Made by a program: the position numbers and the translations under genes
From: Oculina patagonica
Taxonomy: Eukaryota
Length of the DNA stretch: 64,000 nucleotides
NCBI RefSeq assembly: GCF_052425735.1
Contig: NC_135767.1
Coordinates: 15,562,001-15,626,000, forward strand
Reading direction: 5' to 3'
Notes under the pieces: model-generated
Told to the model about the DNA's origin: nothing
The model's database searches: none
What the model saw: the letters and a program-made list of their open reading frames with translations, nothing else
Shown here: positions 5,704-30,940 of the stretch, piece after piece
Layout: each line of letters begins with the position of its first letter
Numbering within the stretch: position 1 is the stretch's first letter

Positions 5704-6069
5704 TTAAAGTTTCAACTTTTTCTTGGCTTGCATGATTCGTTTGACAATGCGTTCCGTCATGGTTTTACTTCCAGGTAATTTGTTGATGGCTTTAATCATT
5801 TTCTCGTCGGCTTTCCACTTGTCCCTTAGATTCTTGGCGTGACTGTAATCGATGTCGTGCTGTTTGGCGATCTTGTCTAATCGATTGATGCCCGGGTCCC
5901 CGCGTTTCAATCGCTTTGCCAATTTGGTTCCGGGACCCATGTACTGATAACCGGGCCAGTGAAATTCGATTCCAGTCTTCCCGAGCCACTTCTGAATGTC
6001 GATCCCACGTCCGCGTTGTCGTCGCCGTGTCGTCTTTTTTTCAGTCCTCTTCTTCTTGGTCTTCGTCAT
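5704..6069 (-). CDS. Parvovirus VP1u-type phospholipase A2 with basic N-terminal leader (PLA2X-like)
   Basis: Ca-binding loop PGYQYMGPG, catalytic LDKIAKQHDIDY and downstream AD; Arg-rich leader ending QRGRG. Confidence 0.88.
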   Translation of the reverse strand: MTKTKKKRTEKKTTRRRQRGRGIDIQKWLGKTGIEFHWPGYQYMGPGTKLAKRLKRGDPGINRLDKIAKQHDIDYSHAKNLRDKWKADEKMIKAINKLPGSKTMTERIVKRIMQAKKKLKL

Positions 6070-7998: not shown

Positions 7999-8493
7999 TC
8001 AGACGGGGGTACCTTCGGATTTATCGTGTTGTCGTTCGTACGCTTGCACGTACTTGTCGGCCACGGGCGGCGTGAAATCGGTGATCGTGTCATCTAGAGT
8101 TTGCATCTTGATCAAGAATCCTTCTAGTTCGTTCATCGGAAGACCGCGCGCGTACGTTCTCAATTCGATCAACGTCTTGTCGTAGCTGGTGTAGGCAAAA
8201 CGACATACGTCCACTTTGAACGAATATTTCTTGAAATCGTTCCAGCCCTTGACGACAGTCCCAGCTGAAGTTAGGCATGCCACAATAACACTATTTTCTG
8301 TAAGGGAACCCGCAATGACACCCGCTGCCACGATGAACAAAGCCAAAGCATTCAATGAAGCATGACACCACTTAAAATGGTAAAACATTTGACGATGACA
8401 CCACCACTTTTTGTGGTAAAAGTTATACAATCCGTCCAATCTGTGTAACAGGTCTGGATCCAAGTTCGTCTTCGAACCGTTTAGTAGGGACAT
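7999..8493 (-). CDS. Two-TM membrane protein, SLATT-like
   Basis: Hydrophobic hairpin LNALALFIVAAGVIAG...VIVACLTSAGTVV flanked by aromatic/basic helices (FKKYSFKVDVCRFAYTSYDKTL). Confidence 0.55.
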   Translation of the reverse strand: MSLLNGSKTNLDPDLLHRLDGLYNFYHKKWWCHRQMFYHFKWCHASLNALALFIVAAGVIAGSLTENSVIVACLTSAGTVVKGWNDFKKYSFKVDVCRFAYTSYDKTLIELRTYARGLPMNELEGFLIKMQTLDDTITDFTPPVADKYVQAYERQHDKSEGTPV

Positions 8494-8897: not shown

Positions 8898-9109
8898 GTT
8901 TTTCTAGCTCTCTCTTCTAGTGTCTGGATCAATTCGCTGAAGTAAGTCTCGTTATATTCTCTCACGAATTTCCACATCTGTCGCTTTTTGGCCAAATGTA
9001 GCACGGTTTGCATGGCGTCGTAGTCCATGTCCTCTTCTCTCATACGCTCGAAATGACGACTGCACAGGTCCAAGAACGCGAGCCACACGTGATCGTTACG
9101 TACGAACAT
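8870..9109 (-). CDS. Polinton hypothetical protein (79 aa)
   Basis: ATG ORF filling the gap downstream of the ATPase. Confidence 0.5.
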   Translation of the reverse strand: MFVRNDHVWLAFLDLCSRHFERMREEDMDYDAMQTVLHLAKKRQMWKFVREYNETYFSELIQTLEERARKTCQDIRQQE

Positions 9110-9761
9110 CTCGAACGAATCTGTAACATCTCATGCATCCCTCGCCTTTTAAGAGGTGGCTAAAAATCCGTCTGTCGTCGCCACTGGCAGGGTGTAGATC
9201 CAATACCATGTAACCAAAGGGTCTTTCCGTCGTCTTGGTGTAGACGTCCATCACATCTTGCCATCGGGAGGGAAACGCTTGTAACAGTAAATTCCTCATG
9301 CCCAATTGATCGCGAGGGTTCTTGAAAGCCACGATGTAATGCGCATTTCGAGAAATGCTCTTGGCGTATTTTCCCGGCGGAAACATGTCTTGACACAAGT
9401 ACAGGACGGTGATGTTCCTGTGGTGGGAAAGTTTGGTGAACAGATCCAATACTCTCTTGTCGTTTCCTCCTTCTTCCATCAGATCGTCCAATACCATCAC
9501 CCCTCCGCGGGGAAACCATTTGGTCAAATCTACTTCTTCGGGAATCCCTTCGTGAAATTTCACGCCTCGCTTTTTCATGTTCGCGAAACCGTCTTGCCAA
9601 GCCCCAAAACAGTAATGAATGGTCTCAGGGGGTGTACTAAACAACTCTTTTGAGTGATTCAAAAGTACCGACTCGGTAAAACAAGTCTTTCCGCAGCTAG
9701 AGGGGCCCACGATCAAAATGCTAGAGGGCATCCGAAAGCTAAAGGCTTCACCGCGCTCCAT
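9096..9761 (-). CDS. A32/FtsK-like genome packaging ATPase
   Basis: Walker A GPSSCGKT, Walker B MVLDDLM, SHHRN and ISRNAHY motifs; first ATG at 9761. Confidence 0.93.
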   Translation of the reverse strand: MERGEAFSFRMPSSILIVGPSSCGKTCFTESVLLNHSKELFSTPPETIHYCFGAWQDGFANMKKRGVKFHEGIPEEVDLTKWFPRGGVMVLDDLMEEGGNDKRVLDLFTKLSHHRNITVLYLCQDMFPPGKYAKSISRNAHYIVAFKNPRDQLGMRNLLLQAFPSRWQDVMDVYTKTTERPFGYMVLDLHPASGDDRRIFSHLLKGEGCMRCYRFVRDVRT

Positions 9762-9893
9762 GGCGAAATGACATTCGTCAAAAAACGAGCAATGATATAA
9801 GCATGTTGCAGAAAAAAAGTCTGCAACGAATCCCGATCTCCCGAGCGACAGACGACACACACCTTATTCATTTCAACGTTTTTATTTGTCATC

Positions 9894-10463
9894 TCACAAC
9901 AACAAGTGTCTTACACCGCAGAGAGACGGTTCACAATCCTGATGGTATTCCATCTTACAAATTTTGTGCCACGACCTTTCCTTCGAGATCAATTGCTTCA
10001 ACATTTGCCCAACTTTATGATCATTGTACACGTAATCGTGTTTCTTGAATCTCGCTTCGAATTGACTCATGCTACGTCCTTCGGCCCTATCGATGAGATA
10101 CATCAACGCGTAATCGCCGCAGCTCTGACTGTACAACGATTGTAGACTCTGTCCGTTGCGCTCCACGTACTTCCAATGAGCGTCCAACCAATCTTGCAAC
10201 GGTTGCGCCGTCTGGTACACCTCCAGGGGTAAGGCGTAACTGTCCAACACTTCGCACACGTTTCCATTCGTCCACAGAGCGATCCAATGCCGACCGCGCA
10301 TGTAGTGGGGATCGGTGTTGACGATGTACCCGCGGGCTTCCGTCTTGAATGGTTTTCGAGGTAATCGATCGCAGGCCACCGTCCCGTAAAAGTAAGGTTT
10401 CAACGAAGGGTGATGTCTGGCCAGCTGATCCAACTGCACGTTATTCAAAGTCACTTTTTCCAT
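9894..10463 (-). CDS. Adenain-like cysteine protease (PRO)
   Basis: IVNTD...GRHWIAL...LDSY...QSLYSQSCGDY (His/Asp/Gln/Cys); AATAAA downstream at ~9879-9884 (minus strand). Confidence 0.92.
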   Translation of the reverse strand: MEKVTLNNVQLDQLARHHPSLKPYFYGTVACDRLPRKPFKTEARGYIVNTDPHYMRGRHWIALWTNGNVCEVLDSYALPLEVYQTAQPLQDWLDAHWKYVERNGQSLQSLYSQSCGDYALMYLIDRAEGRSMSQFEARFKKHDYVYNDHKVGQMLKQLISKERSWHKICKMEYHQDCEPSLCGVRHLLL

Positions 10464-10465
10464 CA

Positions 10466-11869
10466 CTAACGCTGGTACACGTCGTACAACACGGCTTTGT
10501 TCTTGTCTATCTCCAAGAGATTCTCAAACTCTCCGTACACGATGATGGTCAAGTTCACAGCTGGGTTGGCTCCAAAGTTCAGCTCTATTAGTAGATTTCC
10601 GGCTTGCTTGGGGTTCATCCTGTAACTGTCCACGCATCCATTGGCCACGTTGTCGAACACGAACAACGTGCAATTCTTTCCTTGTCCCCAATCGTCACCT
10701 CTCACCATGTTTCCTTGCTGCTTGCACAGACATCCGGTGGCTTGCAAGAAACGGTGGTACCCTCTGAGATCTTTGGTGCCATCGTTGTGGACCAACTCTA
10801 GCGTCTCGTAAGGATACTCTTCTCCTCCCACGAGTTGTTTTATGCTGCTCATTCCAAACTTCTGAAAACAGAAGGGATCGTTGACCACGTTCCCGGTGAA
10901 GGCTGTGGACAGTACCATACCCACGATCACGCGGTTGGGAATTCTTCCTTGGAACAAGTTGGTGCATTCGTACCGTCGTTGATCTCCCTGCATGTTGAAG
11001 GTCCGAATCTCGCTTCTCACGGTCGGGTAACTCACCACTTGACTCTTGGTGGTCATCTCATCCATCAGTCTCCTGTACGTCGTGGGATTGAGACGCACTT
11101 GACACAGGTACATTCGAACTTTGACTTCCTCGGCCGTCAACTTTCCTGCCAGACCCACTCCGTTCAAGAACACGTCGGGAGAATTGAAGTACATCTGTAT
11201 TCCTATCTGCACTCTGGGTACCAACAACTTGCTCAGATGAAACACTTCGATGAGGGGTTTGAAACGCAACACGTGTCGCTTGCCTTCCGTGTAATTGGCT
11301 TGTTCTGCTTTAGAGTTCTTGAGAGCCTCCTTGTGATTGGCGGTCAGGGCTACATAGTCTGCGTGTCCAGCTCCAGCGTTGGCTGCAGTGTTCGTGTTAT
11401 TGTCCGTCCACGTGGCTGGGAAATCGATATGATTGTACCATCCTTGAGGTTTCAAGATGGTTTCTCCATCACGTCTGTCGTAATTCAGCAACGTTTCCAA
11501 GAAGGCTCTGTAATGGTACGTGTCCGTCTGGGGACTGATGAGAGTACCGTTGAGACGCACGCTGATTTGCTTGAACAGAGAATGGGCTAGATTGTTGACG
11601 GGCCACAGCTTGTCGGCAGCTGCCACGTTCTCATCGTTGTCTTTCTTCAGTTGCAATTCTACCTCGAAAAAGCTACGGCTGAGATCGATGTAATCTTCTT
11701 GGGGGTCGATCTGAAACTCCACCGGATTGATGCCTGTGGTGTAGGTCTGAACGGGGACCATCCGATACGACGAGACGCTGACGTCTGTCGGTGGTACGGC
11801 GAATAGATCCAATCGAGGATTGGCCTCGCGTCTCGACTGCGGGTAGGCGCTCGAGATGGTTTCGGTCAT
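10466..11869 (-). CDS. Major capsid protein (double jelly-roll, hexon-like), 467 aa
   Basis: LDLFAVPPT, YIDLSRS, PVNNLAHSLFKQI, YHYRAFLETLLNY motifs of Polinton MCP; located between mCP and protease; ATG 11869 overlaps upstream TGA. Confidence 0.85.
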   Translation of the reverse strand: MTETISSAYPQSRREANPRLDLFAVPPTDVSVSSYRMVPVQTYTTGINPVEFQIDPQEDYIDLSRSFFEVELQLKKDNDENVAAADKLWPVNNLAHSLFKQISVRLNGTLISPQTDTYHYRAFLETLLNYDRRDGETILKPQGWYNHIDFPATWTDNNTNTAANAGAGHADYVALTANHKEALKNSKAEQANYTEGKRHVLRFKPLIEVFHLSKLLVPRVQIGIQMYFNSPDVFLNGVGLAGKLTAEEVKVRMYLCQVRLNPTTYRRLMDEMTTKSQVVSYPTVRSEIRTFNMQGDQRRYECTNLFQGRIPNRVIVGMVLSTAFTGNVVNDPFCFQKFGMSSIKQLVGGEEYPYETLELVHNDGTKDLRGYHRFLQATGCLCKQQGNMVRGDDWGQGKNCTLFVFDNVANGCVDSYRMNPKQAGNLLIELNFGANPAVNLTIIVYGEFENLLEIDKNKAVLYDVYQR

Positions 11870-12102
11870 CGTCTTCTCTTCCTTCTTCCACGGCGCTTCC
11901 GTAAGGTCTGTATCCAGTCGTAGCCAGGAGGCTTTCTGACCTCGGGACCTATCCACCCGCCCTTTTGTACTTTTCGTCGTCGCCTCTTTTGTCCCAACAA
12001 GGCCTGGTTCAAAAGTGCCAGTGAGAATCCTTCTCCCCGCTGTCTGACGGGGGCGCGTTTGGATCGGACCAGTCTGGACGATCGCGAGTAAACGGGATTC
12101 AT
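11866..12102 (-). CDS. Small basic core-like protein with two protease-type sites
   Basis: QRGEG/F and QKGG/W motifs, Arg tracts; ATGA overlaps at both ends. Confidence 0.65.
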   Translation of the reverse strand: MNPVYSRSSRLVRSKRAPVRQRGEGFSLALLNQALLGQKRRRRKVQKGGWIGPEVRKPPGYDWIQTLRKRRGRRKRRR

Positions 12103-12356
12103 TTTTCGGCAAAGATGTCGTTCAGTTTTCTCTTGACGTTTCGTTCTATGACGTTTTTCAGTTTGCGTTTCACGACTCGTTTAGGACCACTCTTGGCTCC
12201 TTGACCCGCTTTACGAATGCGGTCCGCGACGCCGCGCCCACTCTTAAATCCTCTCACGGCTCCACCCAGAGACTCTCTCACGATGTCGGCCAAAAATCCG
12301 TTCCCCTCTTGAGGTGGAGGATCCGGTGTGAAACGCGTCAGGGCACCGCCTCTCAT
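12099..12356 (-). CDS. Basic amphipathic protein, adenovirus pVI-like/cupiennin-like membrane-active candidate
   Basis: MRGG/A and QEGNG/FLADIVRESLGGAVRGFK; located between mCP and MCP. Confidence 0.6.
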   Translation of the reverse strand: MRGGALTRFTPDPPPQEGNGFLADIVRESLGGAVRGFKSGRGVADRIRKAGQGAKSGPKRVVKRKLKNVIERNVKRKLNDIFAEK

Positions 12357-13384
12357 GTTCGCTTGATATGTAAGGTCACGATCGTGTTGCCTTCGCCAAA
12401 ATCCACCAGTTTACCTGTAGTCTCGCTCACTTGCGTTTCAATAATGTCCACAATCTGGTTGCGGAGTGGAATATATTGTATGTGGAGAGGTTCAAAGTAC
12501 TTGATACCTTTTCCTTCACGTTGAAAGTGAATTTCCCGCAACAGATCCGTGACTTGATTTCCCACTACGGAACTACCACCCACATCTGAGTAAACGAAAA
12601 GCGTACGCGATGCGTCTCCAATCACTTTTTGGAAGGCTCTGTTGAGTTTCACAAAGCGCCAGTTACAATAGCAACTCAAGAAAAGCTGTCCATTCTCAAC
12701 AACCCAGAAATTTTTCTTGCCCTCTCCAAAATCATCCACGTCTATGGGATCGGGTATCGTAGCGTGGTGGCATTCCGGCTTCAGGTTCGGCCCGAGAAAC
12801 ACGTTTTCTTTCTCGTCCTTTTTTACCCATCCCATGTCAAAGGCCAAATCCTCGTTGAAAGACATGTAATATGGGACGCCTTCAGTTTTCACTTCCGAGA
12901 CGTCCAAGTTCGAGTTGTCGAGGACTAGTTCTTCACCTTCCCACTTGAACGTATATTCCCACTGCTTTCCATTATCGGGCGACTTGGTCAAGTCTCCCAC
13001 GATACGCTTGTATTCTTTGACTTGATCGAACTTGAAGACCAGGGCTTTCATGAAACTGAGGCCATCCACGATGTTGTCGTCATATAGAATGTCCTGGAAC
13101 GTCAGATCGGTGGTCACCGACTTGCTTTGCACGCGACCCTCCTGGTCTTTGCGCTTGAGCATCCACTGGGCACTCAAGAGAGGAAACTTGAACGACTTAA
13201 AGCGAGTTAAGTCGATGCTGGCATCTGGCACGGAAATGCTACTCAATCCCACTTTCCAACCGGTTCCTTGCAATCGTAGCGGGTGAGGTAATCGCACCTT
13301 GAAAGAGTTTGCTCTATTCTCTGGAAACTCGGTTCCGCTGCTGTGACTGGGTAACGTGACGTAAAATCCTTCCTCGTGGCTCAT
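12353..13384 (-). CDS. Minor capsid protein (penton, single jelly-roll with insertion)
   Basis: FYVTLPSHSS...FPENRANSFKVRLP...WKVGLSSI; LFVYSDV...VGNQ..LLREI...YIPL...VTLHIKR. Confidence 0.88.
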   Translation of the reverse strand: MSHEEGFYVTLPSHSSGTEFPENRANSFKVRLPHPLRLQGTGWKVGLSSISVPDASIDLTRFKSFKFPLLSAQWMLKRKDQEGRVQSKSVTTDLTFQDILYDDNIVDGLSFMKALVFKFDQVKEYKRIVGDLTKSPDNGKQWEYTFKWEGEELVLDNSNLDVSEVKTEGVPYYMSFNEDLAFDMGWVKKDEKENVFLGPNLKPECHHATIPDPIDVDDFGEGKKNFWVVENGQLFLSCYCNWRFVKLNRAFQKVIGDASRTLFVYSDVGGSSVVGNQVTDLLREIHFQREGKGIKYFEPLHIQYIPLRNQIVDIIETQVSETTGKLVDFGEGNTIVTLHIKRT

Positions 13385-14469
13385 GATTTTTTTAGAGCCG
13401 TCTTCTCGATCCAGCTGTCGTACTTGTCTGGCCAGCCTTTCCAGTGCACCAAGACTTTATTTCCTTTTCGTTTGACGATCTTGTCCACCCTGAAGACATC
13501 GTCGTCGGACACTGCGACTTTTTGTAGATCTTCCTTGTAAAACGTACCGCGAAGGGGGGTGTCGTCCAACTCTTGGATCTTGTAAGTCGTGACGGGTGGT
13601 CCCCGACGCACCTCTCGTATCACAAACACTTCTTCGGTCCAGCCGGGTAAATACCCTTTCTCGAACGTGCGAAATTTCTTGTTCAATCTCACGCGTTCTC
13701 CTACTTTTAGCGGGGTTTTTCGTTCTCTTTTACCCGACGACAATCTCTTCGCGTACAGACGTTCCCACACTTTTCCTTCGTTGCTCGCATCCACTTTCTC
13801 GGGGTTGGTGCCGATGCTACGATGGTGGGATCCGTTGTACCCTTTCACCAAGGCCTGGAGTACGGGTAGGTAGCTCAGCGTGTTCTTGGCGGTAAAGTAT
13901 CGGTACATGCGTTCCTTGAGAGTGCGGTTGAAGCGTTCCACGATGCTGGCTTTGGTATCTCCGGCCGTGGAAAAGTGGTGGATGCCTTCCCGTTTCATCA
14001 ACGCGGCAAACGTCTTGTTGTAAAATTCTTTCCCGTCGTCGGTCTGTAGGTTCTGAGGTTTGCGTCCATCGGCTCGTTTCAAAATCTTGGCAAAGGCGCC
14101 CGACACCGTTTTTCCCGTCTTGTCTTTTAGGGGTTCCACCCAAGCATATTTAGACAAGACGTCGATCACGTTGAGTAGATATCTGTGACCCTTGTTGTAT
14201 TTGGACAACGGTTGCGTTTCCACTAAATCGGCTACCCACTGTTGGTCGACATTAAACACCAGGACCGGTAACGTGGCAAAACGACGTCTGCGCGGTTTGT
14301 GAAGGGTATAACCCAAATCGCGCTCCAATACTTTTTTGGCTGTGTCGACGGATATCTTGTGCGATTTGGCGAATCTTGCTATCCCACCCAAGCTACCCGG
14401 TTGACTGGGATCGTGGTAGTCCGAAAGTATCTTCTCATCCTTTTTCTTTTTCTTCATCTTCTTTGGCAT
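13381..14469 (-). CDS. Retroviral-type (rve) integrase with C-terminal chromodomain
   Basis: DDE core WVADLV / QTDDGKEF / IVERFNRTLK; chromodomain VHWKGWPDKYDSWI. Confidence 0.95.
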   Translation of the reverse strand: MPKKMKKKKKDEKILSDYHDPSQPGSLGGIARFAKSHKISVDTAKKVLERDLGYTLHKPRRRRFATLPVLVFNVDQQWVADLVETQPLSKYNKGHRYLLNVIDVLSKYAWVEPLKDKTGKTVSGAFAKILKRADGRKPQNLQTDDGKEFYNKTFAALMKREGIHHFSTAGDTKASIVERFNRTLKERMYRYFTAKNTLSYLPVLQALVKGYNGSHHRSIGTNPEKVDASNEGKVWERLYAKRLSSGKRERKTPLKVGERVRLNKKFRTFEKGYLPGWTEEVFVIREVRRGPPVTTYKIQELDDTPLRGTFYKEDLQKVAVSDDDVFRVDKIVKRKGNKVLVHWKGWPDKYDSWIEKTALKKS

Positions 14470-15840: not shown

Positions 15841-15844
15841 CGCT

Positions 15845-16025
15845 ACAACTGAGTCGACAAATGGACGCGCAGCTCTTTTTATACGTTGGATGACGTCACC
15901 TGGGTCATTGCCGGTTGGTCGGAAGAGGTCACGTGTTACCTCTCTGGTTGGTTCGTGCGTATTGACGTCATCCGAGAGTAAAGTATAAAAGCACCGTGTT
16001 GTCTCCTGTTAGTCCTCAGTTGGAG
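15845..16025. promoter_or_regulatory. Symmetric bidirectional Pol II promoter
   Basis: TATAAAA at 15877-15883 (-) and 15984-15990 (+); TCAGTT Inr at 15847-15852 (-) and 16016-16021 (+); CRE TGACGTCA at 15891 and 15963; E-box GTCACGTG at 15928. Confidence 0.75.
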
Positions 16026-16038
16026 CATCGAGAGCACC

Positions 16039-16947
16039 ATGGACGTAGCAGAACCCCAAAAAAAGCGACAGAGGAGAGGGACTGGAAACCCCAAGAAACC
16101 CAAAGTCCCCCGTAAAAAGAGACATCCTACAAAGAAGAAGATGGAGTTGAAAGAGGAAGTGTTGGAGGAGGGTGAAATTTTCGACCCCGACCAGTTCCTG
16201 CAACAGACCTTTGTCGACACGGAGCGCGACCCGGTTTGCCCCGTCCACAAAGAACCGCTGACCAAGAGAATGACGGACGGGGGATGGGAGTTCTACTTTT
16301 GCCCCCACACGAGCGAAGGCACCATCTGTTTCATTTGCACCGGTAGCGCCCACATTGACCAGTACGTGGTGGCGGTCAATCAACAGTTACCGGCTTACTA
16401 TTATTGGAACACGGATAAGATGAAATGTTACTGCAACGAGAGTCTCATTCTGAGCATGTCGAAATCAGAGAGCAACCCGGACAGGATCTACCTCAAGTGC
16501 AGAAAGGGTAAATGCCGGTTCTTCCAATGGGCAGACAGTCTTCCGTTTGGCAAGATCAAAGCCTGGCTGGAAGGAAAGGAATATGTGGGAAACGAGGATC
16601 CCCTCTACTCGAGAAGGTCTGGACTGGACTCTAGGGACGAATTTGGATACCCCAGAAGAGGACAAGACGTGGTGGATAGACCGCAACGAATTCTGGATGG
16701 GAGACCCGCCTTCAAAGTACAACACTACCCACCCCCGGTCAAGGATTGGATTGGTGATCTTCCCTTGGACGAGTCATTGGTCAAACAGTGTCAAGAGCAA
16801 AAGTTTTGGGTGGATGGAGAAGGGAAAATTATTCTTCCCCCGGAATTGGCTGGCGTGAAGTACGACTCGGATGAAGAGAAAATGCTGAGAAATCAACTGT
16901 ATCTGAGATGCATTTCCCAGAAACAATATCCTAATTTGGATCATTGA
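16039..16947 (+). CDS. GRF-type zinc-finger protein with N-terminal NLS
   Basis: CYCNESLILSMSKSESNPDRIYLKCRKGKCRFFQWAD = zf-GRF; a second related Cys/His cluster CPVH...FYFCP...CFIC; KKRQRR/PRKKRH NLS. Confidence 0.8.
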   Translation: MDVAEPQKKRQRRGTGNPKKPKVPRKKRHPTKKKMELKEEVLEEGEIFDPDQFLQQTFVDTERDPVCPVHKEPLTKRMTDGGWEFYFCPHTSEGTICFICTGSAHIDQYVVAVNQQLPAYYYWNTDKMKCYCNESLILSMSKSESNPDRIYLKCRKGKCRFFQWADSLPFGKIKAWLEGKEYVGNEDPLYSRRSGLDSRDEFGYPRRGQDVVDRPQRILDGRPAFKVQHYPPPVKDWIGDLPLDESLVKQCQEQKFWVDGEGKIILPPELAGVKYDSDEEKMLRNQLYLRCISQKQYPNLDH

Positions 16948-17012: not shown

Positions 17013-17534
17013 ATGACTCCGGAAAACGTGTGCATGATCTTGGACTTGGAAGGTTACTTTGTGGAGAAGACGTTTCGAGTACGCGAGTTGGGTTATTACA
17101 CTTGGCAAGAAAAGTTCGGACGCCATGCTTTCTACATGAGAATGTCGTGGTGCAACTTATCTTCCAGAGACAGAAAAACCGTGTCTTACGTCAAATACAA
17201 CGTGCACGGACTGACGTATCAACCCAGAAAGGAAGAAAAGGCCTACGAGTATGACAGGGTGGAGGAGGTGATGTGGGATTTGTACGAGGAGACCAAAACC
17301 CCCGAGAGAACCGTGGTGGCTTACAAGGGAGGACACGTAGAAAGAGACTTGTTGAACAAACTGAACATTCCTAGCGTGAATTTAGAACTGTACGGATGTC
17401 CGAAATACGACGTGTTGAAAGAGACAATTGTAGAACCTTTACCTAGTTGCGGTTTTCATCTATACGAAGGACATTGTCCAATGACCGAATGTCATGCTTT
17501 CTGGTTATGGTACCAGACTTTTGTTGTTAAATAA
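17013..17534 (+). CDS. DnaQ/DEDDh-fold nuclease, Maelstrom-like
   Basis: ExoI ILDLEG, VRELG, VHGL, ERDLL, C-terminal CGFH...HCPMTEC; stop overlaps AATAAA. Confidence 0.68.
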   Translation: MTPENVCMILDLEGYFVEKTFRVRELGYYTWQEKFGRHAFYMRMSWCNLSSRDRKTVSYVKYNVHGLTYQPRKEEKAYEYDRVEEVMWDLYEETKTPERTVVAYKGGHVERDLLNKLNIPSVNLELYGCPKYDVLKETIVEPLPSCGFHLYEGHCPMTECHAFWLWYQTFVVK

Positions 17535-17589
17535 ATTTAAAAATTGCTCCATGCCGAAACTGAATTACGAGAGTATGGGATTCAATCGC

Positions 17590-18760
17590 TTAAACAACAA
17601 CAACAAATACCGCACGCTAAATTATATTTTTTCGCGAACGGTGAAAATCACAACAAAGTCGATGACACTTGTGCTTAGAGTCCAAAAATATGAAATTTTC
17701 GGCTCAATAACATTCATCGAAATAATATCTTTTATGGTTGGACGTCTTTTTGATTTAAGGGCCGAAAAAAATATTTTTTCTTCGAGAAAAAACATTTGAA
17801 CAACGGCCGAATGAACCACCTACAACGATTATATTTTTAGCGGCCGGTGAAAAAATCACAACAAACTCGTTGACACACTTGTTTAGGGTGTAAAAATGTG
17901 AAGATCCGGCTCAATGACTTGCTTTGAGATTCACTAAAATAATATCATTCATGGTTGGACGTCCCTTTCATTTCAGGGCCGCAAAAACAAACAAACAAAC
18001 AAACGCATTTAAACAACAACAAATACCGTACGCTAAATTATATTTTTTCACGAACGGTGAAAATCACAACAAAGTCGATGACACACTTGTTTAGAGTCTA
18101 AAAATGTAAAAAAGTCGGCTCAATGACTTGCTTTGCGTTTTACTAAATTAATACCATTCATGGTTGGACATCTCTTTGATTTAAGGGCCGCAAAAACATT
18201 TTTTCCTCGAGAAAAATGCATTTGATCAACGGTCAAATGAACTGCACGCTAAAATTATATTTTTTCGCGACCGGTGAAAATCACAACAAAGTCGATGACA
18301 CTTGTGCTTAGAGTCCAAAAATATGAAATTTTCGGCTCAATAACATTCATCGAAATAATATCATTCATGGTTAGACGCCCCTTTGATATAAGGGTCGCAA
18401 AAAAAAAAATTTTTTTCTTCGAGAAAAATGCATTTGAACAACGGCCAAACGAACCTCACGCTAAAATTATATTTTTTCGCGAACGGTAAAAATCACAACA
18501 AAGTCGTTCACACACTTGTTTAGAGTCTAAAAATGTGAAAGGTTCGGCTCAATAACTTGCTTTGAGTTTCAGTGAAATGATATCATTCATGGTTGGACGT
18601 CCCTTTTGATTTAAGGGCCGCGAAAAAATTTTTTCTTCGAGAACAAACATTTGAACAACGGACAAATGAACCGCACACTAAAATTATATTTTCTCATCAA
18701 ACGGTATATAGAATCACAACAGAGCGGTTGACACATTTGTTTAGGATTTACAACGTTTAA
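17590..18760. repeat. Internal tandem array, ~6 diverged ~210-bp units
   Basis: AATCACAACA recurs at ~17645, 17854, 18062, 18279, 18490, 18712 with similar flanks. Confidence 0.88.
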
Positions 18761-19253: not shown

Positions 19254-19535
19254 TTCCGAGAATGAACACACGCGGGTTCCTAGAATTCCGAGAATTCCGA
19301 GAAAGATTCTCCACGCGCGTGCGTCGGGATTTTTCCCTTGGGGAAAATCCCGTCAGCTTGGGATTTTACCCTTGTGGGGAAAATCCCGTCACCTTGGGTG
19401 ACATTGATCATGAGATCTCATTGGTTCATTCTGTATCAGGTCACCTCGATTGACCAATGGGAATATTAGAGCCCAGTTCTTCTGGGATAGGAAAGTTGTA
19501 TAAAACGCGCTGCACTGCTAGAAAACTTCAGTTTT
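19254..19535 (+). promoter_or_regulatory. pPolB promoter with GAS-like and kB-like motif clusters, CCAAT, TATA and Inr
   Basis: TTCN3GAA at 19254, 19277, 19286, 19295; GGG(A/T-rich)CCC at 19326, 19340, 19360, 19376; CCAAT ~19454; TATAAAA 19499; TCAGTT with A at 19530. Confidence 0.65.
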
Positions 19536-19824
19536 GCCGGCCCATGGGGGCCGAACAGGAAGAAGCCAGAAGAAGCAAGCAAGAAAGAAGACAAGCAAGA
19601 AAAAAGCAAGCAAGAAAGAAGACAAGCAAGAAGAGGACATCGTGGTAAGAGAACCTTTCAGTCCTGAATTTTATTTTTATTTTTTGGAGCAATGAGTGTC
19701 TTGGGTTTTCGGATTTGAAAATTGGATTTTTTGTCGTTCGTCATAAAATTAATTGTGTGACTGATAAATGCCTTTGACATATTAATGTGTAATGTTTTCG
19801 TTTTTGTAGTTGGACCCGTCTAAC

Positions 19825-22800
19825 ATGGGAGAAAATGATTCAATTAAAGACATTGCGGTAAGTAAATTTTAAGTGATTGTCTGTGCAAGTAGTCGATTAC
19901 TGATCGACAAGGTCGTAGTCATTTCATGGTTTAGGCGCCGACTACGTTCCTCCCTCCCTGCTTGCTGTGCACATGCGTTTATGAAGATGCTTGATTACAA
20001 CAAACAACCCATCCTTCATATCTGGCAATCCACAAGCCAATCAGAAGACCTGCTGTCAATTAAAATATGTCAAACCTGTGAAATAGCTAGCATCTCGAGC
20101 CGGTATGTAATAGCCCGAATATAAACGTTGTGATCGGTTAGGTCGATAACATGTAATCTCGTTGTTTGAATAAATTAAAAAAGAAGCGTGTTGTTTTTCA
20201 TTCTTCAAAATGTTTGAATCGTAGGAGTGGAGCAACGAGTGGAACGATGATGGTGACGAACTTTTGGCGGACTCCGTTGATCAATCAGTGCAAGACGAGC
20301 CAGGATTCGATTTCCAACTTTTCCCCCACGTGGATAGACGGGTCAGGAGATTCGGGCTGAGACACAGGAACTACACGGCGCGATTGGTCCAACGTGGAGG
20401 CGGGGTCGACCTTTCCGTACCCCTAGGACCCAGACCCGTGCTGGCGGGCGAGATCGAGGAGGCCCTGCAGCGAGCCATCAACAGACAAGTGCTGACGGAC
20501 GACGCCGTCCGATTGGACGATCACTTGCTGATCAACATCAACTCCAACAGACTAAGGAACGCGTACCACTCGCGTCGATTGAGGGTCAGAGATTGGAGAG
20601 ACAACACTCTCCCTGCCAGACAAGTGTTGGACCAACTTAGCAACATGCTAAATTCTGATCAGCAGTTTAGAATAGACGACAGTTTTAACCTGAACATCAG
20701 CCACATACAGGACCCCGGAAGAGGAGGTAGACCACCCAAAGTGGGACTGGACGCCATAGAAAAGATTTTGGACGAGAAAAAATCGGTGATTAAAATTACA
20801 AACACAGACTCACTGTGCTGCGCCCGAGCCCTGGTGACCATGAAGGCTCATAGAGACCTTGGCGCCAGTGACAATAGATACAAGAATATACGACAAGGAA
20901 GTCGAGTCCAAGAACGTTTGGCCAAAGAGTTGCACCGCTCGGCCGGTGTAGCAGAAGGACCTTGCGGCCTAGACGAACTGCAAAAATTCCAAGTGTCATT
21001 GGCAGAGTACCAGATCGTGGTAATATCCGTCCAGCACGGCTACCAAATCATATACAAGGGACCGCAAAGACCGGAAGCCAAGCGTCTGATCCTAATAAAG
21101 AACGGCGACCATTACCACGGTTGCAACTCTTTGAAAGGCTTCTTCGATAAAAACTTCTATTGTATAGAATGTGAAAAAGGTTACGACCACAATAACGCCA
21201 AAGACCACCGCTGTCTGGGTAGAAAGTGCTTCGCCTGTCACCAGAGCGATTGCCGCGACTACAAGCGAGCAGAAGGAGAGACGGCGCAGGTGCGATGCAA
21301 CGACTGCGGGCGCTGCTTCTTCGGGGACCGCTGTTTCAAGAATCACAAGCAAAGGCAGAGCGACGACGGGAAAAAGGCCGACGGACGAAAAAAGAACAGC
21401 GTCTGTCACACGAGAAAGAAGTGCGAACGGTGCCGAAAGACCTACGAAGGGTACGAATTGACCAACGGTCACCGATGCGGCCACGCCGAATGCCCGTCGT
21501 GTCGAAAGTACGTGGACCTCAACGCCCACAAGTGCACGATCCAAAATCCAGAAAAGTTGGAAGAAGACAGAGAGAAGAGGCGGGCTAGAAAGAGGAGGAA
21601 CGACGGCACCCGAATCGTCCCGCAAGAACCCGAACCGCCCGTGTTCGTCTCGTGGGACGCGGAGGCCAGACAGGAAGAGGGCATACACGTTCCAAACCTC
21701 ATATGCGCCATGACAACGAACAGCGAGGAAGAGTACCAGTTCGAGGGGGAGACGTGCGTGAAGGACTTTTTGGATTGGTTGAGAGAGATCGCGGAGGACT
21801 CCAAGGTGATCGCCGTGGCCCATAATTTCCAGGGCTATGACGCCTACTTTGTGTTGGACGAACTGTACCGACAAGGCATCTGTCCCGACCAGGTGGTCAA
21901 CGGGGCCAAGATCTTATCCATGAGCATACCCAACATCACGTTCAAGGATTCGATGTGCTTCCTGCAAATGCCCCTGTCCTCGTTCCCCAAATCCTTCGGA
22001 CTGACGGAAGAAAAGAAGGGGTTTTTCCCGCACTTTTTTAATACCGTGAACAATCAGAACTATGTGGGACGGATCCCTGCCCGTGACTATTATGATCCCC
22101 AGGGCATGTCGAAAGAGAGAAAAGAGGAGTTTGATCAGTGGTACGCTGAACGATTGGCCGAGAACTATCACTTCGACTTTCAAAAGGAACTGATAGCTTA
22201 CTGTAAATCCGACGTGAGGCTGTTGCACGAGGGATGTCGAGTCTTTAGAGAAGAATTTCGCGACGTGGCGGGGTTCGACCCCATGGAGAAGTGTCTGACG
22301 ATAGCCACAGCCTGCAATCTCTATTTTCGCACCAAGTGCATGAGAAAGGACACCCTGGGCTCAGAACCCGTCAGAGGATGGCACGGAAAAGGGAAACCTC
22401 ACTCCAGAGCTTCGATGGAATGGCTGTTGTACGTGGGGAACGTGACGCACGCCAGAAACGGTGGCGAAGCAGTCATTCCCGTGGCCGGCAAACGCGTTCA
22501 CGTGGACGGCCTGTCGACGGACGAGAAGACGGTCTATGAGTTCCACGGCTGTTTCTACCACGGTTGTCCGACGTGTTTTCCCCAGCGCGACAAGAAGCAT
22601 TCCAAATTGGACGGTAGGAGCATGAGAGACGCATACGAATCGACGCTCGACAAGACCGCGTCGCTGAGAGAAGCCGGGTATGAAGTTATAGAGATGTGGG
22701 AGTGCGAATGGAACGAGAAGAAGAGGACGGATGCTGACGTGGGCGCCTACGTGAAATCGCTGCGACTGACCGAGAGACTGGAACCGAGAGACGCGTTTTT

Positions 22801-24256
22801 TGGCGGGCGAACCAACGCCATAAAATTATACCACAAAGTCCAAGAGGGTGAAAAAATCCAGTACGTGGACTTCACTTCCCTCTACCCCTTTATCAACAAG
22901 AATTGCGAGTACCCCGTGGGACATCCCGAGATCATCGTGGAACCGGGCACCACGGACCTCTCTGGATACTTCGGGTTGGCCAAATGCACAGTGTCTCCAC
23001 CGCACGGACTGTACCACCCTGTACTGCCCTACAGGCACGGCGGAAAACTGACGTTTCCATTGTGTCGGACATGCGTAGAGACCGAACAGGGGAAACCGCT
23101 GACCGAAAGATCGTGCAAGTGTAAGCACAGTCCCGAGGAGCGGCAATTGACTGGGACCTGGTGCACACCAGAGATCGAGGAGGCCGTGAAACGCGGGTAC
23201 GTCATAGAACACGTCCACGAAGTGTGGCATTTTGAGAAGAAAGACGACACGCTGTTCAGAGAATTCGTAAACACATTTCTAAAAATGAAGCAAGAAGCCA
23301 GTGGTTGGCCATCGTGGGTGGGTGACGACGTGGACAAACGCGTCCAGTACATCACTCAATACGAGCAGAAAGAAGGCATCAAATTAGACGCCGACAAGAT
23401 CGAGAAGAACCCCGGAAGGAGAAGCTTGGCAAAAATGATGCTAAACTCCTTCTGGGGAAAATACGGGCAGCAGTCCAACAAGAGTCAAGTAGAGGCGTAT
23501 ACATCTCCGGCAGAGTTCCACGACCTACTCAGAAACGACGAGAAAGTCATCGAAGACCTGCGCGTGGTAAATCCTGAAATGATCGAGGTCGTGCACAAGA
23601 ACAAAGAAGCCTGCGACCCCGTTCAAGTGAATATCAACATCTTCGTGGCCTGCTTCACCACGTGTTGGGCCAGACTGAAACTGTATCGGGACGGGCTCTC
23701 CAAACTGCAAGACGAGCAGGTCCTGTATTTCGACACCGACTCCATCATCTACAAACGGGGCGAAGGAGAAGACGAACTACCCCTGGGCGACTATCTGGGA
23801 GAGTTTACCAACGAACTAGACGACGAGGATTTTATCGTCGAGTTCGCCTCGGCAGGGCCGAAAAATTATGGATATAAAACAAAAAACGGGAAAACTACCT
23901 GCAAAGTGCGAGGATTCTCGCTCAACGCGCGAGGATCCGAACAATTGAATTACGAGATCTTGAAGCAGAACGTGTGCGACGAAGTGGAGCGACCCTTGGA
24001 CAAGCCCCGACACATACCCGTATTCAACCCGCACAAAATTACGCGAGACAAGAAGACAAAACAACTCCACACGCAGACAGAAATAAAACAATACAGAGTC
24101 GTATTTGATAAAAGGGTCGTGGACCCTGACAGTTTCTTCTCTTACCCTTATGGGTATTTGAAGAGCAGACTTGAGGTGGAAGCTGAAGAGCTTATGGATT
24201 TGGCCGAATTGAACGAGCAAGACAAAAGGAACATTGAAGTATTAATGGACCTTTGA
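19825..24256 (+). CDS. pPolB: Protein-primed family B DNA polymerase (TP region, vOTU, Zn fingers, 3'-5' exo, VSR-like insert, polymerase); predicted spliced, 1354 aa
   Basis: WDAE, AHNFQGYD, FKDS, KGFFPH, YCKSDV, DFTSLYP, KMMLNSFWGK, YFDTDS, GPKNY; exon 19825-19857 (GTAAGT donor) joins in frame to 20225-24256. Confidence 0.95.
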
Positions 24257-24432: not shown

Positions 24433-25409
24433 CAAAACTCTCTTACTCGTTCCCAGTACACCCGAGAAAGGGGGATACCCCCATCCCCCTCTCTCTCACG
24501 TGATTTTTTAAAAAATAGCTTTACAAGCGTGCGTTTTCTCTGAATCGCCGACCCAAATTCTTAGAAAAAGCAATATAGACTCAACTGCGCATGCGTGTAG
24601 TGCAAAATGTTTAGTTTCAGATACCACAAGGAAAGCCTATATACCTTTGGGGTCTTCATAAGAGGGGTAACTCATTATTTAGTGCAAGTGTATCGCATAG
24701 ACTAATCTGCGCCTGCGTTTAGTGCACAGTATTTAGTTTTAGATACCACAAGGATAGCCTGGCCGTTTGTGAACCATATATAAAGGATGGTCGGCTTGCT
24801 AACTCTGTGAGTGAATCGCGTAGACTACTCTGCGCATGCGTTAAGTGCCAAGTATCGAGTTTCAGATACCACAAGGACAGTATGGCCGTTTGCGAACCAT
24901 ATATAAAGGATGGTCAGCTTGCTAACTCTGTGAGTGAATCGCGTAGACTCAACTGCGCATGCGTTTAGTGCCAAGTATTTAGTTTCAGATACCACAAGGG
25001 CAGCATGGCCGTTTGTGAACCATATATAAAGGATGGTCGGCTTGCTAACTCTGTGAGTGAATCGCGTAGACTACTCTGCGCATGCGTTAAGTGCCAAGTA
25101 TTTAGTTTCAGATACCACAAGGACAGCATGGCAGTTTGCGAGGATGGTGGTCTTGCTAAGATAGGGCGCGGGATTACTCGGGTCCCGCAGACGTCCCGCG
25201 TGTCAACTCGGTTCCAGGCCTCGCGCGGCCAATGATGACGTAATAAACGGCCATTGAACGCTGATTGGTGGTCCGAGTGATGACGTCACAGCCTCAAAAA
25301 TTTGAACTACTTATTTGTCACGTGACCCGATCCCTGTAACGTGATTGGTCATCTGCTATAATCCCTGCACTGTGATTGGTATTCTGCTAAACAGCTGTGC
25401 CTTACTACT
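24433..25409 (-). repeat. Right terminal inverted repeat (977 bp)
   Basis: Reverse complement of 4639-5615. Confidence 0.95.
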
Positions 25410-26022: not shown

Positions 26023-28199
26023 TTAAAAGCGCGTTTGGCTAGCTGCGGATGGCTCGGATGGAAATGGCTTCCAATTTGAAAACGTTAGCCAACGTTTTCA
26101 AGTTGTTTCCGCGTGCCTTCAAATCAATTGATTATTTATAGTCGAAGTGTGGTTTCTATTTCCAAATAAATTTTATATCTTCTACTAAAATTTACTGTTC
26201 AAAGATAATTGTTTTTTATGGTTAAAGTTGCCTACCACTTATATCAGAACAGTTAAGGCTAAAAATCTGCGAAATTCCCGCGACATAGTCCCTTTAAATT
26301 TTATATAAATGTTCGATTTTAACCCAGCATATTTGCGCATTAGCGCGTGAGAGGACCTAAGGTCAAGAGGAAAAAGGCAAGCATCGGATAAGGCAGAGAT
26401 GTAACCTAAAGGTGCACTTCTGAGTTTAAGTATTGGGGCGATTTATCAGCCATCAGTAAATTTGGCAGATTTTACATTTCAGCTATTAGTAAGAAACGCG
26501 CGTGTCTTTTTACAGTTTACAACATTACAGCATGAAAATTTGTATCTTAGTGAAGAAGTTAAAGGGGGTGTAATCTGGTTTTAAGTTTGTTATCCAACTT
26601 TACACCATCTATTAAATGTTGTTAAAGGTGGTTAAACCAATCTTTAGGCTACCATGTGTAAGTGTGATTTAAAGCGGTTGGTGTACTGAAAGAAGTCCCA
26701 TTACTCTGCCTTTACTTGAGTGTAATGCTGGCATAAAGGTCAGCTTTAAAAATGTAAAGTAAGCGTGAAGCTGATTAAATTCCGAATTTACGCCAGCTTT
26801 ATTTGAGCTTTACGCCATAGTAAAATTATGTTTTTATTCTGTTTAACAGTTTTGTCTAACTCAGCTATCGGCTGTCAAGCCCAATTAAAATGAGCAATTT
26901 CTTATATTCAAGGTATACTTATACAGCATGTAAGTCATTATAACTTGGAAATGTAGGATTTGTCGCAGTCACAGTCACAGTCACATATGTGAGGATTTTG
27001 GCAAAGAAAAAGAGTTGAAGTTATAAACTTTTTTCTTGGATCTGTACTCTTCCCTGGGACCCTTCTAAGAGCAGTTCTATTTCAAGGGAATTTCATAACA
27101 TAGTGTCATGACCAAGAATGTCTATTGCCCTAGCTAAATAAAATATAATAATTAAGCGGTAGGCTAATGCAAGAAGAAGGGCTTTAGACAGGAAGACAAG
27201 CATAAGGGAAACAACGGTGGAGTCCGGGTTGAGGGACTGGAGGAGATTGCAAAAGAACGGAACACCGGCTATAAAGACCCCTCTGTTGAATTTTGTGCAC
27301 CAATTTTAGCAATTGGACTGATGACAGCAAGTGTCTATGCCGGTCTACCATATACAATTACCGTTCAGTGCACATACTGGTCTGAAAGCCGGCAGGTAAT
27401 AGACTTCTACACTCCAAGCTTAAGGTCGCGCAGGACCCTTGCTCATTAATAAAGTCATTAGCCAAATTTCTTGACGGGGTGCTATCTTGTAAAGCTTTAA
27501 TTCGCTACATTTTGAAATTTATCAAGGATATTAAGGGATGATGGAGAGAGACGACCGTTTACTGTAATGCTACAGGCTCTTCAAAGTTTAACTGCAGATA
27601 ATGCGATTTTGTGTACAAGTTTTCGGCTACAACAGGGCACCGAACTAAATGATTATATAATCTAGTGATGAATCAAAACCTCTTTTGTGTTATGACAAGA
27701 ACGAAATTTTCGATTTCAAAAACTGCTAGAAGTTATCTGCTTCTAAGAGAGTAAAAATGTGAAGTGTAAACTTTGAAACGTGCTATCTTCGTTTTGAGAA
27801 CGAAATTTCAAAATTCGCTTTTGTCATAACACAATAGAGTGCACCAAGGTCATGTTCCTCGCGAATCAACTCCTGAAATTCTATATCGGCGAAGAAAATT
27901 TGGACACAAAATTGCAGGATTTTCCGCTTCCGAAGACCTTCCGAGTCAATGTTTACAACCCTTCTCGGAGACCCAGGGGCAGTTAGTGGGGGCGACGTGC
28001 AGCTTATCGGGACAACAGGAATTTCGGGCGAAAGTTTACAACATAGAGCGTAACAGCCCCTGGGCACTTTGTCTTACCGAACCAGTTCCAGAAGCGTTTG
28101 AACTCCTTCCTCCTGATTGGCCACAAAAATATTTTTGTGGCCAATCAGCAACGAAGACCGGCCAGGAGACTCTGATGTCTTCTTACACGAAGTTGTTTA

Positions 28200-30940
28200 G
28201 AATGTATACTTTAGGCCTTTAAGGGAAAATGCCATCACGTGGATTCCGCGTAATTTCCCCCTCAGGCCCACAGAAATCAAATAAGAAAGTGGCACTTTGT
28301 TCGCACTCAAAATGGCGATTTTTGGCACTTGCGTTTGAAGCGACGATGTAGATCAAGCGTCATTTTTACTCCAGACGCAGCAAAAACTGTGGTTTTGACA
28401 CTTAAAATGTACATTTTTGGCCTTTTAGGGAAAATGCCATCACGTGGATTCGGCGTAATGTTCCGTTAAGACCCACAAAAATGAAATAAGAAAGTAGCAC
28501 TTTGTCGATCAAAATGGCGATTTTTGGATCTTGTGTTTTAAAGCGAATACGTAAATCAAGCGTAATTTTCATCTCAGATTGATCAAAAACTGCCGATTTA
28601 ACACTTAAAATGTTTATTTCAGGTCTTTTAGAAAACATGCCTTCACGTGGATTCGGCGTAATGTTCCGTTAAGACCCACAAAAATCAAATAAGAAAGTGG
28701 CGCTTTGTCACTCAAAATGGCGATTTTTGGATCTTGTGTTTCAAAGCGAATACGTCAATCAAGCGTAATTTTCACTTCAGATCCATTAAAAACTGCCGGC
28801 TTGACACTTCAAATGTACATTTTAGGTTTTTTAGGTAAAATGCCATCACATGGATTCGGCGTAATTTTCCGTGAAGACTCAAAGAAAGCAAATAAGATAG
28901 TGGCACTTTGTCGATCAAAATGGCGATTTTTGGAATTTTGTCTTTTAAAGCGAATTCGTAAATCAAGCGTAATTTTCACTTCAGATCGATCAAAAACTGC
29001 CGATTTAACACTTAAAATGTTTATTTAAGGTCTTTTAGGAAACATGCCATCACGTGGATTCGGCGTAATGTTCCGTAAAGACCCACAGAAATCAAATAAG
29101 AAAGTGGCACTTTGGCACTCAAAATGGCGATTTTTGGGGTCTTGTGTTTAAAAGCGACCAGATAAAAAAAGCGTAATTTTCACTCCAGATCCATTAATAA
29201 CTGCGGGTTTGACACTTAAAATGTACATTTGTGGTCTTGTAGAGAAAGTGCCATCACGTGGATTCGGCGTAATCTTCCCTCCAGACCCACGGAAATCAAA
29301 TAAAAAAGTGGCATTTTGTCACTCAAAATGGCGATGTTTGGCTCTTCCTGTTTAAAAGAAACCACGTAGATCAAAGGTAAATTTCACTCCAGATACAGCA
29401 AAAACTGTCGGTTTGAAACTTAAAATGTATATTTCAGGCCTTTTAGGGAAAACGCCATCACGTGGATCCGGCGTAATGTTCCCTCCAGACCCACAGAAAT
29501 CAAATAAAAAAGTGGCATTTTGTCACTCAAAATGGCGATTTTTGGCTCTTGTGTTTAAAAGCGACCAGATAAATCAAGCGTAATTTTCACTCCAGATCGA
29601 TCAAAAATTGCAGGGTTGACAGCAGTTAAAATGTACCTTTTAGGCCTTTTAAGGAACATGCCATCACGCAGATTCGGCGTAATGTTCCCTCCAGACCCAC
29701 AAAAATCAAAAAAGGAAGTAAAACTTTGTCATTCAAAATGGCGACTTTTGGCTCTTGTGTTTAAAATCGACCACGTAGATCAAGCGTACATTTTACTCCA
29801 GATGCAGCAAAAACTGTCAGTTTAACACTTAAAATATACAATTTAGGCCTTTTAGGGAAAATGCCATCACGTGCATTCGGTGTAATCTTCAGTCAAGACC
29901 CACAGAAATCAAATAAGAGAGTGTCACTTTGTCACTCAAAAATAATGGCGATTTTTGGCTCTTTCATTTTAAAGCCGTAAAGTAAATCAAGCGTAATTTC
30001 CACTCCAAATGCAGAAAAAACTGTCGGTTTGTCAATTAAAATGTACATTTTAGGCCTTTTAGGGAAAATGCCATCACGTAGATTCGGCGTAAATGTTCCG
30101 GCAAAACCCACAGAAATCAAATAAGAAAGTGGCACTTTGTCACTCAAAATGGCGATTTTTGGCTGTTGTGTTTAAAAGCGACCACGTAGATCAAACGTCA
30201 TTTTCACTCCAGATGCAGCAAAAACTTTCGGTTTGACACTTACAAATGTTAATTGAAGGCCATTTAGGGAAAATGCCGTCACGTGCATTCGGTGTAATCA
30301 TCTGTCAAGACCCACAGAAAAACTGAATAAGAAAGTGACACTTCGTCACTCAAAATGGCGATTTTTAGCCCTTGTGTTGAAGCAAAAACGTAAATCAAGC
30401 GTAATTTTTTCTCCAGATCCATTAGTAACTGCCGGTTTGACAGTAAAAATGTATATTTTTGATCTTTTAGGGAAAATGCCATCACGTGGATTCGGCGTTA
30501 GGGTAATGTTCCCTCCAGACCCACAGAAATGAAGTAAGAAAGTGGCACATTGTCACTCAAAATGGCTTAAAAAAACTCTTCTGTTTAAAATCGACCACGT
30601 AGATCAAGCGTAATTTTTACTCCAGATGCAGCACAAACTGTCAGTTTAACACTTAAAATGTACAGTTTAGGCCATCGCGTGGATTCGGCGTTATCGTCCG
30701 TCAAGACTCACAGAAATCAAATAAGGAAAGGGCACTTTGTCACTCAAATGGCGATTTTTGGATCTTGCGTTTTAAAGCGAATACGTAAATCAAGCGTAAT
30801 TTTCAATCCACATCCATCAAAAACTGGCGATTTGACACTTAAAATGTACATTTTAGGTCTTTTAGGGAAAATGCCATCACGTGGTTTCGGCGTAATGTTC
30901 CCTCCAGACCCACAGAAATCAAATAAGAAAATGTCACTTC
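28200..30940. repeat. Satellite-like tandem array, ~13-14 copies of ~204 bp
   Basis: ATGCCATCACGTGGATTCGGCGTAAT and CAAAATGGCGATTTTTGG recur about every 204 bp. Confidence 0.93.

Follow-up and report, generated by a model that had tools for sequence, protein, structure and literature searches.

The window analysed here, a 64,000-nucleotide stretch of the Oculina patagonica genome, contains a complete Polinton at positions 4639-25409, and within it lies the small nuclease gene with which we are concerned. The element is built as follows:

4639-5615, no strand: left terminal inverted repeat of 977 nt, 100% complementary to the right one, with the target duplication TACTAT outside
5704-6069, minus strand: parvovirus-type PLA2 gene (PF08398, E 6e-12)
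9096-13384, minus strand: virion module with packaging ATPase, protease and putative major (467 aa) and minor (343 aa) capsid proteins
13381-14469, minus strand: integrase with chromodomain (PF00665, PF00385)
15841-16038, no strand: divergent promoter-like region, seen in the sequence, with two TGACGTCA sites and a TATAAAA on each strand
16039-16947, plus strand: GRF zinc-finger protein, 65 nt upstream of the nuclease (PF06839, E 3e-7)
17013-17534, plus strand: stand-alone 173-aa protein with ECHC residues, its fold predicted as that of a DEDDh 3'-5' exonuclease (ORF, AF2 models, fold searches)
20645-24256, plus strand: protein-primed DNA polymerase B (pPolB) with exonuclease motifs (PF03175, E 4.5e-46)
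24433-25409, no strand: right terminal inverted repeat, pairing with the left one

The pPolB, the integrase with its chromodomain and the PLA2 all match above the Pfam cut-off. The ATPase and the protease gave weak Pox_A32 and Peptidase_C5 matches below it, and the two capsid proteins, which have no Pfam match, are putatively identified from size and synteny. With its long terminal inverted repeats, 6-bp target duplication, pPolB, integrase, ATPase and protease, the element is a Polinton/Maverick of the Alpha adintovirus type, and PLA2X is indeed described as a gene of Alpha adintoviruses (PMC8502044, section 3.2). We found 44 nuclease matches in the coral's own genome, 25 of them full-length at ≥95% identity; the Polinton is complete, young and multicopy. 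A preliminary description of this DNA had assumed a germline-integrating element, and the terminal repeats, target duplication, pPolB and integrase support that context. Its early-type promoter needs a qualification: the CRE/TATA region exists, but it lies upstream of the GRF gene and not directly before the nuclease ORF. The window holds four TGACGTCA (CRE) sites versus 1.09 expected, two of them in the promoter-like region and two in the terminal repeats. No RNA dataset is listed among those that carry the nuclease region. Four sequencing runs presumed to be RNA covered genes and intergenic DNA alike and are thus uninformative on expression; they probably contain DNA.

Several further features of the region were recorded. 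Both terminal repeats contain 123-nt tandem repeats (4907-5473 and 24576-25141), with one TGACGTCA site in each terminal repeat. Positions 7999-8493 encode a SLATT-like two-helix membrane protein (E 1.4e-4, below the cut-off), and cnidarian adintovirus maps carry SLATT labels as well (PMC8502044, Supplementary Fig. S2). Between the nuclease and pPolB, an imperfect repeat array with a unit of ~210 nt occupies 17600-18760, its copy number differing in other samples. Because the pPolB frame is open for ~120 codons 5' of the first ATG (19400-20644) and the NCBI gene model adds short upstream exons, the N-terminus of pPolB is probably spliced. A 204-nt host tandem repeat lies outside the Polinton at 28197-29999. 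The segment 15900-17600 is present in at least 20 sequencing runs (four organism codes, seven studies), 18 of which have at least half of its words, and in the four of these runs that were examined most of the Polinton is covered.

The nuclease gene is a real ORF from ATG to TAA that encodes 173 aa, and an NCBI gene model for Oculina patagonica matches 83% of the protein at 100% identity. The protein is slightly acidic (pI 6.1). Its motifs, in protein numbering, are:

17043-17054, plus strand: Exo I motif D11-L-E13-G14, by conservation, with G14 at the position of Lassa NP G392 (PMC3429428)
17085-17087, plus strand: E25 in strand 2, the first ECHC residue (Glu in 122/137)
17340-17342, plus strand: E110, the likely Exo II acid (Glu for Asp, 136/147), near the start of the helix after strand 4
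17448-17489, plus strand: C146-x-x-H149 ... H154-C155-x3-E159, by column conservation
17530-17535, plus strand: AATAAA over the stop codon, a likely polyadenylation signal

All motifs that had been named beforehand (DLE, RELG, VHGL, ERD, CxxH, HC and HxxxxE) occur in the ORF, with the first acids at D11 and E13 and not, as numbered earlier, at D10 and E12; the other residues of interest are E25, H65, E110, D112, C146, H149, H154, C155 and E159. Conservation was counted over the best 150 of 1,611 family representatives, taking for each column the sequences that have a residue there. The Exo I columns gave D11 in 114/128, D or E at 13 in 117/131 and G14 in 114/131; for Exo II we found E110 in 136/147 and D112 in 79/147, and for Exo III H154 in 104/119 and E159 in 96/124. 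The ECHC columns are E25 (122/137), C146 (123/133), H149 (126/133) and C155 (114/119). Because E110 is better conserved than D112, it is most likely the second Exo acid, and the family reads D-[DE]-E-H-E; the ERD motif is present as described, but D112 is not its conserved acid. H154 is likely the general-base histidine, E159 the last acid (Glu for Asp), and C146, H149 and C155 the three remaining ECHC residues. D[DE]EHE together with ECHC is found in 73 of 101 representatives from the best 150, and the exact ECHC in 89 of the 101. The earlier reading of a catalytically complete DEDDh set therefore holds by residues (D11, E13, E110, H154 and E159), with roles assigned from alignment and secondary structure and two positions carrying Glu for Asp. 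Its placing of the VHGL histidine in the ECHC-type set does not: H65 is conserved (119/148), yet it lies outside the E, C, H, C zinc ligands given for Bombyx MAEL (PMC4408791). Between CxxH and C, a spacing of 7 is seen most often (28 of 97 scored).

The ORF evolves under purifying selection. Against a 72%-identical copy (G000:C4), dN is 0.188 and dS 1.129, and two nuclease copies of another element family differ by dN 0.014 and dS 0.113. Among the 20 best-scoring of the 25 near-identical copies pN/pS is 0.28, a value biased by this choice of copies.

The family is large. A word search returned 108 relatives, and a profile search gave 1,611 representatives (clusters at 50% identity) at E ≤ 0.001. 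The first search covered lengths of 95-303 aa and the longer search 521-2000 aa, with 304-520 aa covered by the representative search alone. The best 150 of the 1,611 have a median length of 180 aa, the longest reaching 342, and among them we saw no fusion of the nuclease to a GRF domain. Two long matches considered as fusions look like gene-model artefacts and were rejected: one loses the last 29 residues and enters pPolB, the other enters a Pao retrotransposon. By sequence, the 173-aa protein matched no known family or structure. Pfam gave no match, PHROGs at best E 0.043, and PDB sequences, arenavirus NP included, nothing at E ≤ 10; no relative was found in phage records, and 85 pattern matches in IMG/VR contained none.

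The nuclease is an optional, dispensable accessory gene. In two elements of the same genome (G000:C8:8.18 Mb and C10:14.11 Mb), most virion-module proteins match those in the window at 94-100% identity, and GRF and a full pPolB are present, but neither tblastn nor a six-frame profile search found the nuclease. Another Polinton family has the nuclease without GRF, so that the adjacency of the two genes, direct as it is here, is separable: each occurs without the other. The distribution across Polintons, a check proposed at the outset, thus shows a gene that recurs in these elements yet is missing from sister copies. All six regions fetched around divergent copies in the coral's own genome have Polinton genes within 10 kb, two of them a single one (ATPase or GRF). 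In metagenomes, where many loci are redundant and short, a Polinton core gene accompanies the nuclease in 21 of 79 loci and a GRF gene in 25 of 79; among the 28 loci of at least 4 kb, 15 have a core gene, 24 any gene of this element and 17 GRF. Module swapping is seen at G000:C8:8.18 Mb, C10:14.11 Mb and C1187:352-363 kb: virion modules that are nearly the same come with different GRF and pPolB modules, and one copy has a 71%-identical ATPase among 95-99% neighbours.

Two AlphaFold models (AF2), built from 52 and 90 sequences, reached pLDDT 95.1 and 97.0 and have DnaQ topology. The DEDDh fold proposed beforehand is predicted in both, and DEDD nucleases fill the top VIA-align rows (Z about 10-12, rmsd 3.0-3.8, 137-157 residues aligned). 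For the two models the best row is the DinG exonuclease (Z 11.8 and 12.2, rmsd 3.1 and 3.0, 143 aligned), with Plex9.1 at 11.3 and 11.8 and Pol III epsilon at 10.8 and 11.4; ISG20, ERI1 and PAN2 score 10.5-11.3, MAEL at best 10.9 and 10.5 (range 9.4-10.9), and arenavirus NP 10.2-10.4, with Lassa NP at 10.4. Foldseek placed the arenavirus NP ExoN first with both models (E about 5e-4, TM about 0.5), followed by RNase AS (E 1.8e-3), a ranking with weak E-values in which arenavirus NP is represented by many PDB entries. MAEL is not among the Foldseek matches listed, which excludes nothing. When VIA-align was restricted to Foldseek's list, the Lassa NP-dsRNA complex came first (Z 11.7, rmsd 3.5, 143 aligned, several ties). 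Over all VIA-align lists, structural identity was highest for arenavirus NP, at 16-18% versus 5-14% in the other rows. On these predicted models, the fold alone does not select a nuclease subfamily. The preliminary description had named an ordinary DnaQ DNA exonuclease as the best match that would speak against it; this is what VIA-align returned and Foldseek did not.

The VIA-align ranking bears on one alternative, namely that the protein is a 3'-5' DNA exonuclease, which would trim replication or integration intermediates or clear cytosolic viral DNA as TREX1 does, avoiding cGAS-STING. The element itself is a DNA virus, DNA exonucleases head the VIA-align lists, and Nematostella responds to cGAMP (PMC8713801). 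The GRF neighbour fits as well: GRF fingers are nucleic-acid binders, and the module binds ssDNA. Against these points stand the conserved glycine of D-x-E-G, the otherwise near-identical elements that lack the gene, the proofreading motifs of pPolB itself (three, at residues 337, 393 and 519), and the literature surveyed, which in the parts covered reports no ECHC nuclease acting on DNA. We consider a DNA exonuclease unlikely. A proofreading role in particular was rejected, given the absence of the gene from near-identical elements and the exonuclease motifs that pPolB has of its own.

The ECHC residues had been read as the signature of the MAEL domain of Maelstrom. They are conserved and follow the MAEL order, in agreement with coral, Bombyx and Drosophila MAEL, but they are not specific to it, being common to the arenavirus ExoN (PMC7968707). 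The E and H also occur in some ordinary DnaQ-H domains (Zhang 2008, PMC2628886, Fig. 3 legend), so that the C-terminal CxxH...C bears most of the distinguishing weight. At the sequence level we found no link to MAEL: none of 52 members matched PF13017 at E ≤ 1, PF13017 is not among the 25 of 41 families listed for 90 members, and a PF13017 search of the coral's own genome hit none of the nuclease copies and two host exons. The beginning of the Maelstrom profile hits two host loci, at G000:C8:30.18 Mb and C8:16.58 Mb. An hhalign comparison with coral MAEL, whose profile is shallow (3-6 sequences), gave E 0.24-0.44, which is not significant and no better than shuffles; in this forced alignment E25 (on the ELG glutamate), C146 and H149 fall on their coral MAEL equivalents. 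The proposed structural check against MAEL yields a similar fold: with one model MAEL ties with the top row (Z 10.9 versus 11.8), with the other it scores lower (10.5 versus 12.2), and it is not a significant profile match. A single 173-aa domain without Pfam match and with DEDD kept also differs from animal Maelstrom, which is defined by an HMG box and DEDD loss. Judged by its residues, the family would work like ECHC nucleases without belonging to PF13017 by sequence.

A language-model search, in which scores below 0.9 are leads only, returned unnamed, mostly arthropod clusters at 0.90-0.97, then Maelstrom at 0.88, Rv2179c-like at 0.82, DEDDh_C at 0.80 and arenavirus NP at 0.79. Among viral models the matches (E 5e-14 to 7e-5) were two unnamed proteins, four ichnovirus ORFs and a Drosophila adintovirus 2 protein, the ichnovirus and adintovirus proteins reaching TM 0.6-0.77 by the shorter chain.

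Could the gene be a recently captured fragment of host Maelstrom with no function of its own? The host does have MAEL loci, but coral MAEL lacks the D-x-E that the nuclease family keeps, the two show no sequence similarity, dN/dS is 0.11-0.17 and the family comprises 1,611 diverse clusters. Retention of D-x-E, purifying selection and family diversity refute recent capture, which we regard as extremely improbable.

The active site has been lost repeatedly within the family. We scored 103 domains (99 of the best 150 representatives after a coverage filter, the window's copy, two copies from the coral's own genome and a second tandem domain): 78 have both sites, 17 only ECHC, one only the catalytic set and seven neither. 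The imbalance of 17 versus 1 gives p = 4e-4 in a rough binomial test, and the losses are spread over the tree (20 changes versus a shuffled mean of 21.8). Some of the ECHC-only domains may stem from copies in decay, and a structural zinc site may simply be harder to lose. One variant lies in a Polinton with a full gene set (G000:C8:8.05 Mb): the copy is intact and has Lys at the H154 and E159 positions with ECHC unchanged. Two frameshifted relatives share these Lys residues, and dN 0.071 versus dS 0.671 over 141 codons indicates that this degenerate variant was under selection. Two homologues of the putative minor capsid gene stand in tandem in the same element (G000:C8:8.037-8.038 Mb). In protein P0120, a tandem duplicate, one domain is complete and the other keeps ECHC without the catalytic set.

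By analogy, the retention of ECHC with loss of catalytic residues echoes animal Maelstrom. A second alternative is a Maelstrom mimic which would enter or block the PIWI-piRNA silencing complex, with the degenerate variants as decoys. A basic residue in place of the last acid is reminiscent of Bombyx R306 (PMC4408791), the CxxH-to-C spacing of 7 is that of coral MAEL, the element is germline-integrated in 25 near-identical copies, and in the language-model search no family-bearing Atlas cluster scores above Maelstrom. The protein nevertheless lacks an HMG box, has 173 aa versus about 237-253 residues in MAEL chains, shows no significant sequence match, and keeps both sites in most of the domains scored. 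We hold a mimic to be quite improbable. A third alternative is a general RNase with no specific link to defence, which would serve expression of the element itself or shut off the host (3'-end trimming, deadenylation or general ssRNA decay). Entamoeba MAEL cuts ssRNA (PMC4408791), ISG20, ERI1 and PAN2 score well in VIA-align, and the early-type promoter region precedes the gene. Against it, the gene is dispensable, and a protein that did nothing but cut would hardly be expected to lose catalysis repeatedly while keeping ECHC. This alternative, too, strikes us as distinctly unlikely.

We tentatively favour a fourth reading, to which we give a little less than an even chance: the nuclease may be a 3'-5' exoribonuclease that counters RNA-triggered defence. 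D11, E13, E110 and E159 would carry out two-metal catalysis with H154 as base, and E25, C146, H149 and C155 would bind one zinc that stabilises the nuclease. On the model of the arenavirus nucleoprotein ExoN, the enzyme would be expressed early and remove viral or element RNA (dsRNA or silencing precursors) before host RNA sensors and the small-RNA machinery act. Variants with ECHC but without catalytic residues could be RNA-binding shields, as animal Maelstrom binds RNA uncut. Two points speak for an RNA substrate: those ECHC proteins that have been characterised act on RNA, and G14 corresponds to Lassa G392, which is proposed to confer RNA specificity (PMC3429428, Discussion). A defence role is favoured because the gene is dispensable and has structural matches in ichnovirus segments; packaged polydnavirus DNA is described as having no replication genes (PMC2646287), and in cnidarians long dsRNA triggers an RLR response, with RNAi genes among those involved (PMC8476169). 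The counter-defence role suggested earlier fits accessory status as a sign of host interaction, but nothing favours piRNA over dsRNA sensing. Several points weigh against an exoribonuclease of this kind: DNA exonucleases come first in VIA-align, the pI is 6.1, no equivalents of the Lassa basic loop and Y429 were identified at the level of the alignment, and the gene blocks of the Polinton diverge, leaving no obvious source of dsRNA. Positions 59 and 69 of the nuclease hold conserved aromatics, and basic residues stand at 52-55, 105 and 131.

The gene bears on how Polintons persist against RNA sensing and piRNA silencing, and a small single-domain protein makes the counter-defence hypothesis directly testable. 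The family offers hundreds of catalytically complete ECHC nucleases with scattered natural catalytic-loss variants, and it bears on the origin of Maelstrom and the arenavirus ExoN; their origin is discussed with just these two lineages in PMC7968707, in the parts covered. In the broadest case, which is possible but rather unlikely, animal Polintons would carry a third, very large ECHC-DEDDh lineage beside them, a DNA-virus suppressor of RNA-based defence that was taken up by polydnaviruses, switched many times from enzyme to binder, and may link MAEL and ExoN as a mobile reservoir. In the literature, with supplements covered in part, we found nothing on how large the family is, on its intact active site and arenavirus likeness, or on its dispensability and degenerate variants. 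Nor did we find a main-text description of a Polinton ECHC nuclease; supplements may say more on "MAEL". The idea of an undescribed system survives in so far as we found no report of these properties; the "MAEL" label on adintovirus maps is already published.

Among known systems, the ordinary DnaQ-type exonucleases (DinG, Pol III epsilon, TREX1-like Plex9.1, ISG20, ERI1) share the fold and give the highest Z, but cellular ExoNs are described as having no ECHC finger (PMC7968707). Animal Maelstrom (PF13017; 4YBG, 5AF0, 9NHC) aligns at Z 9.4-10.9 and rmsd 3.4-3.6 over 150-157 residues and agrees in ECHC order and spacing, whereas it has an HMG box, a larger domain, no DEDD and 8-9% structural identity. 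Bombyx MAEL, in which Arg replaces an acid, binds ssRNA without cutting it (PMC4408791). The protist MAEL nuclease of Entamoeba (EHI_192630) unites DEDD and ECHC and is an active exoribonuclease (PMC4408791), a likeness by description; it is cellular, and the coral nuclease has no sequence match to PF13017. Four genes on Alpha-PolB adintovirus maps, insect elements by their layout, are labelled "MAEL" (Starrett et al. 2021, PMC8502044, Supplementary Fig. S2), so the resemblance to MAEL had already been noticed. It is a label alone, the main text covered there having neither "MAEL" nor "piRNA"; these genes probably belong to the coral nuclease family, as the match of the Drosophila adintovirus protein to our model (TM 0.73-0.76) suggests. 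The arenavirus NP ExoN differs in being part of an RNA-virus nucleoprotein and in having Asp at Exo II and III where the coral family has Glu; the nuclease stands alone among the best 150 of 1,611, with no fusion to an NP core and no sequence match to NP. The Lassa zinc site also has a longer loop between His and the last Cys. Yet the arenavirus ExoN of Lassa and LCMV is likewise a viral DEDDh fold with D-x-E-G and an ECHC finger (PMC7968707), it is the top Foldseek match, and it is an immune-evasion exonuclease, Lassa NP cutting dsRNA (PMC3429428).
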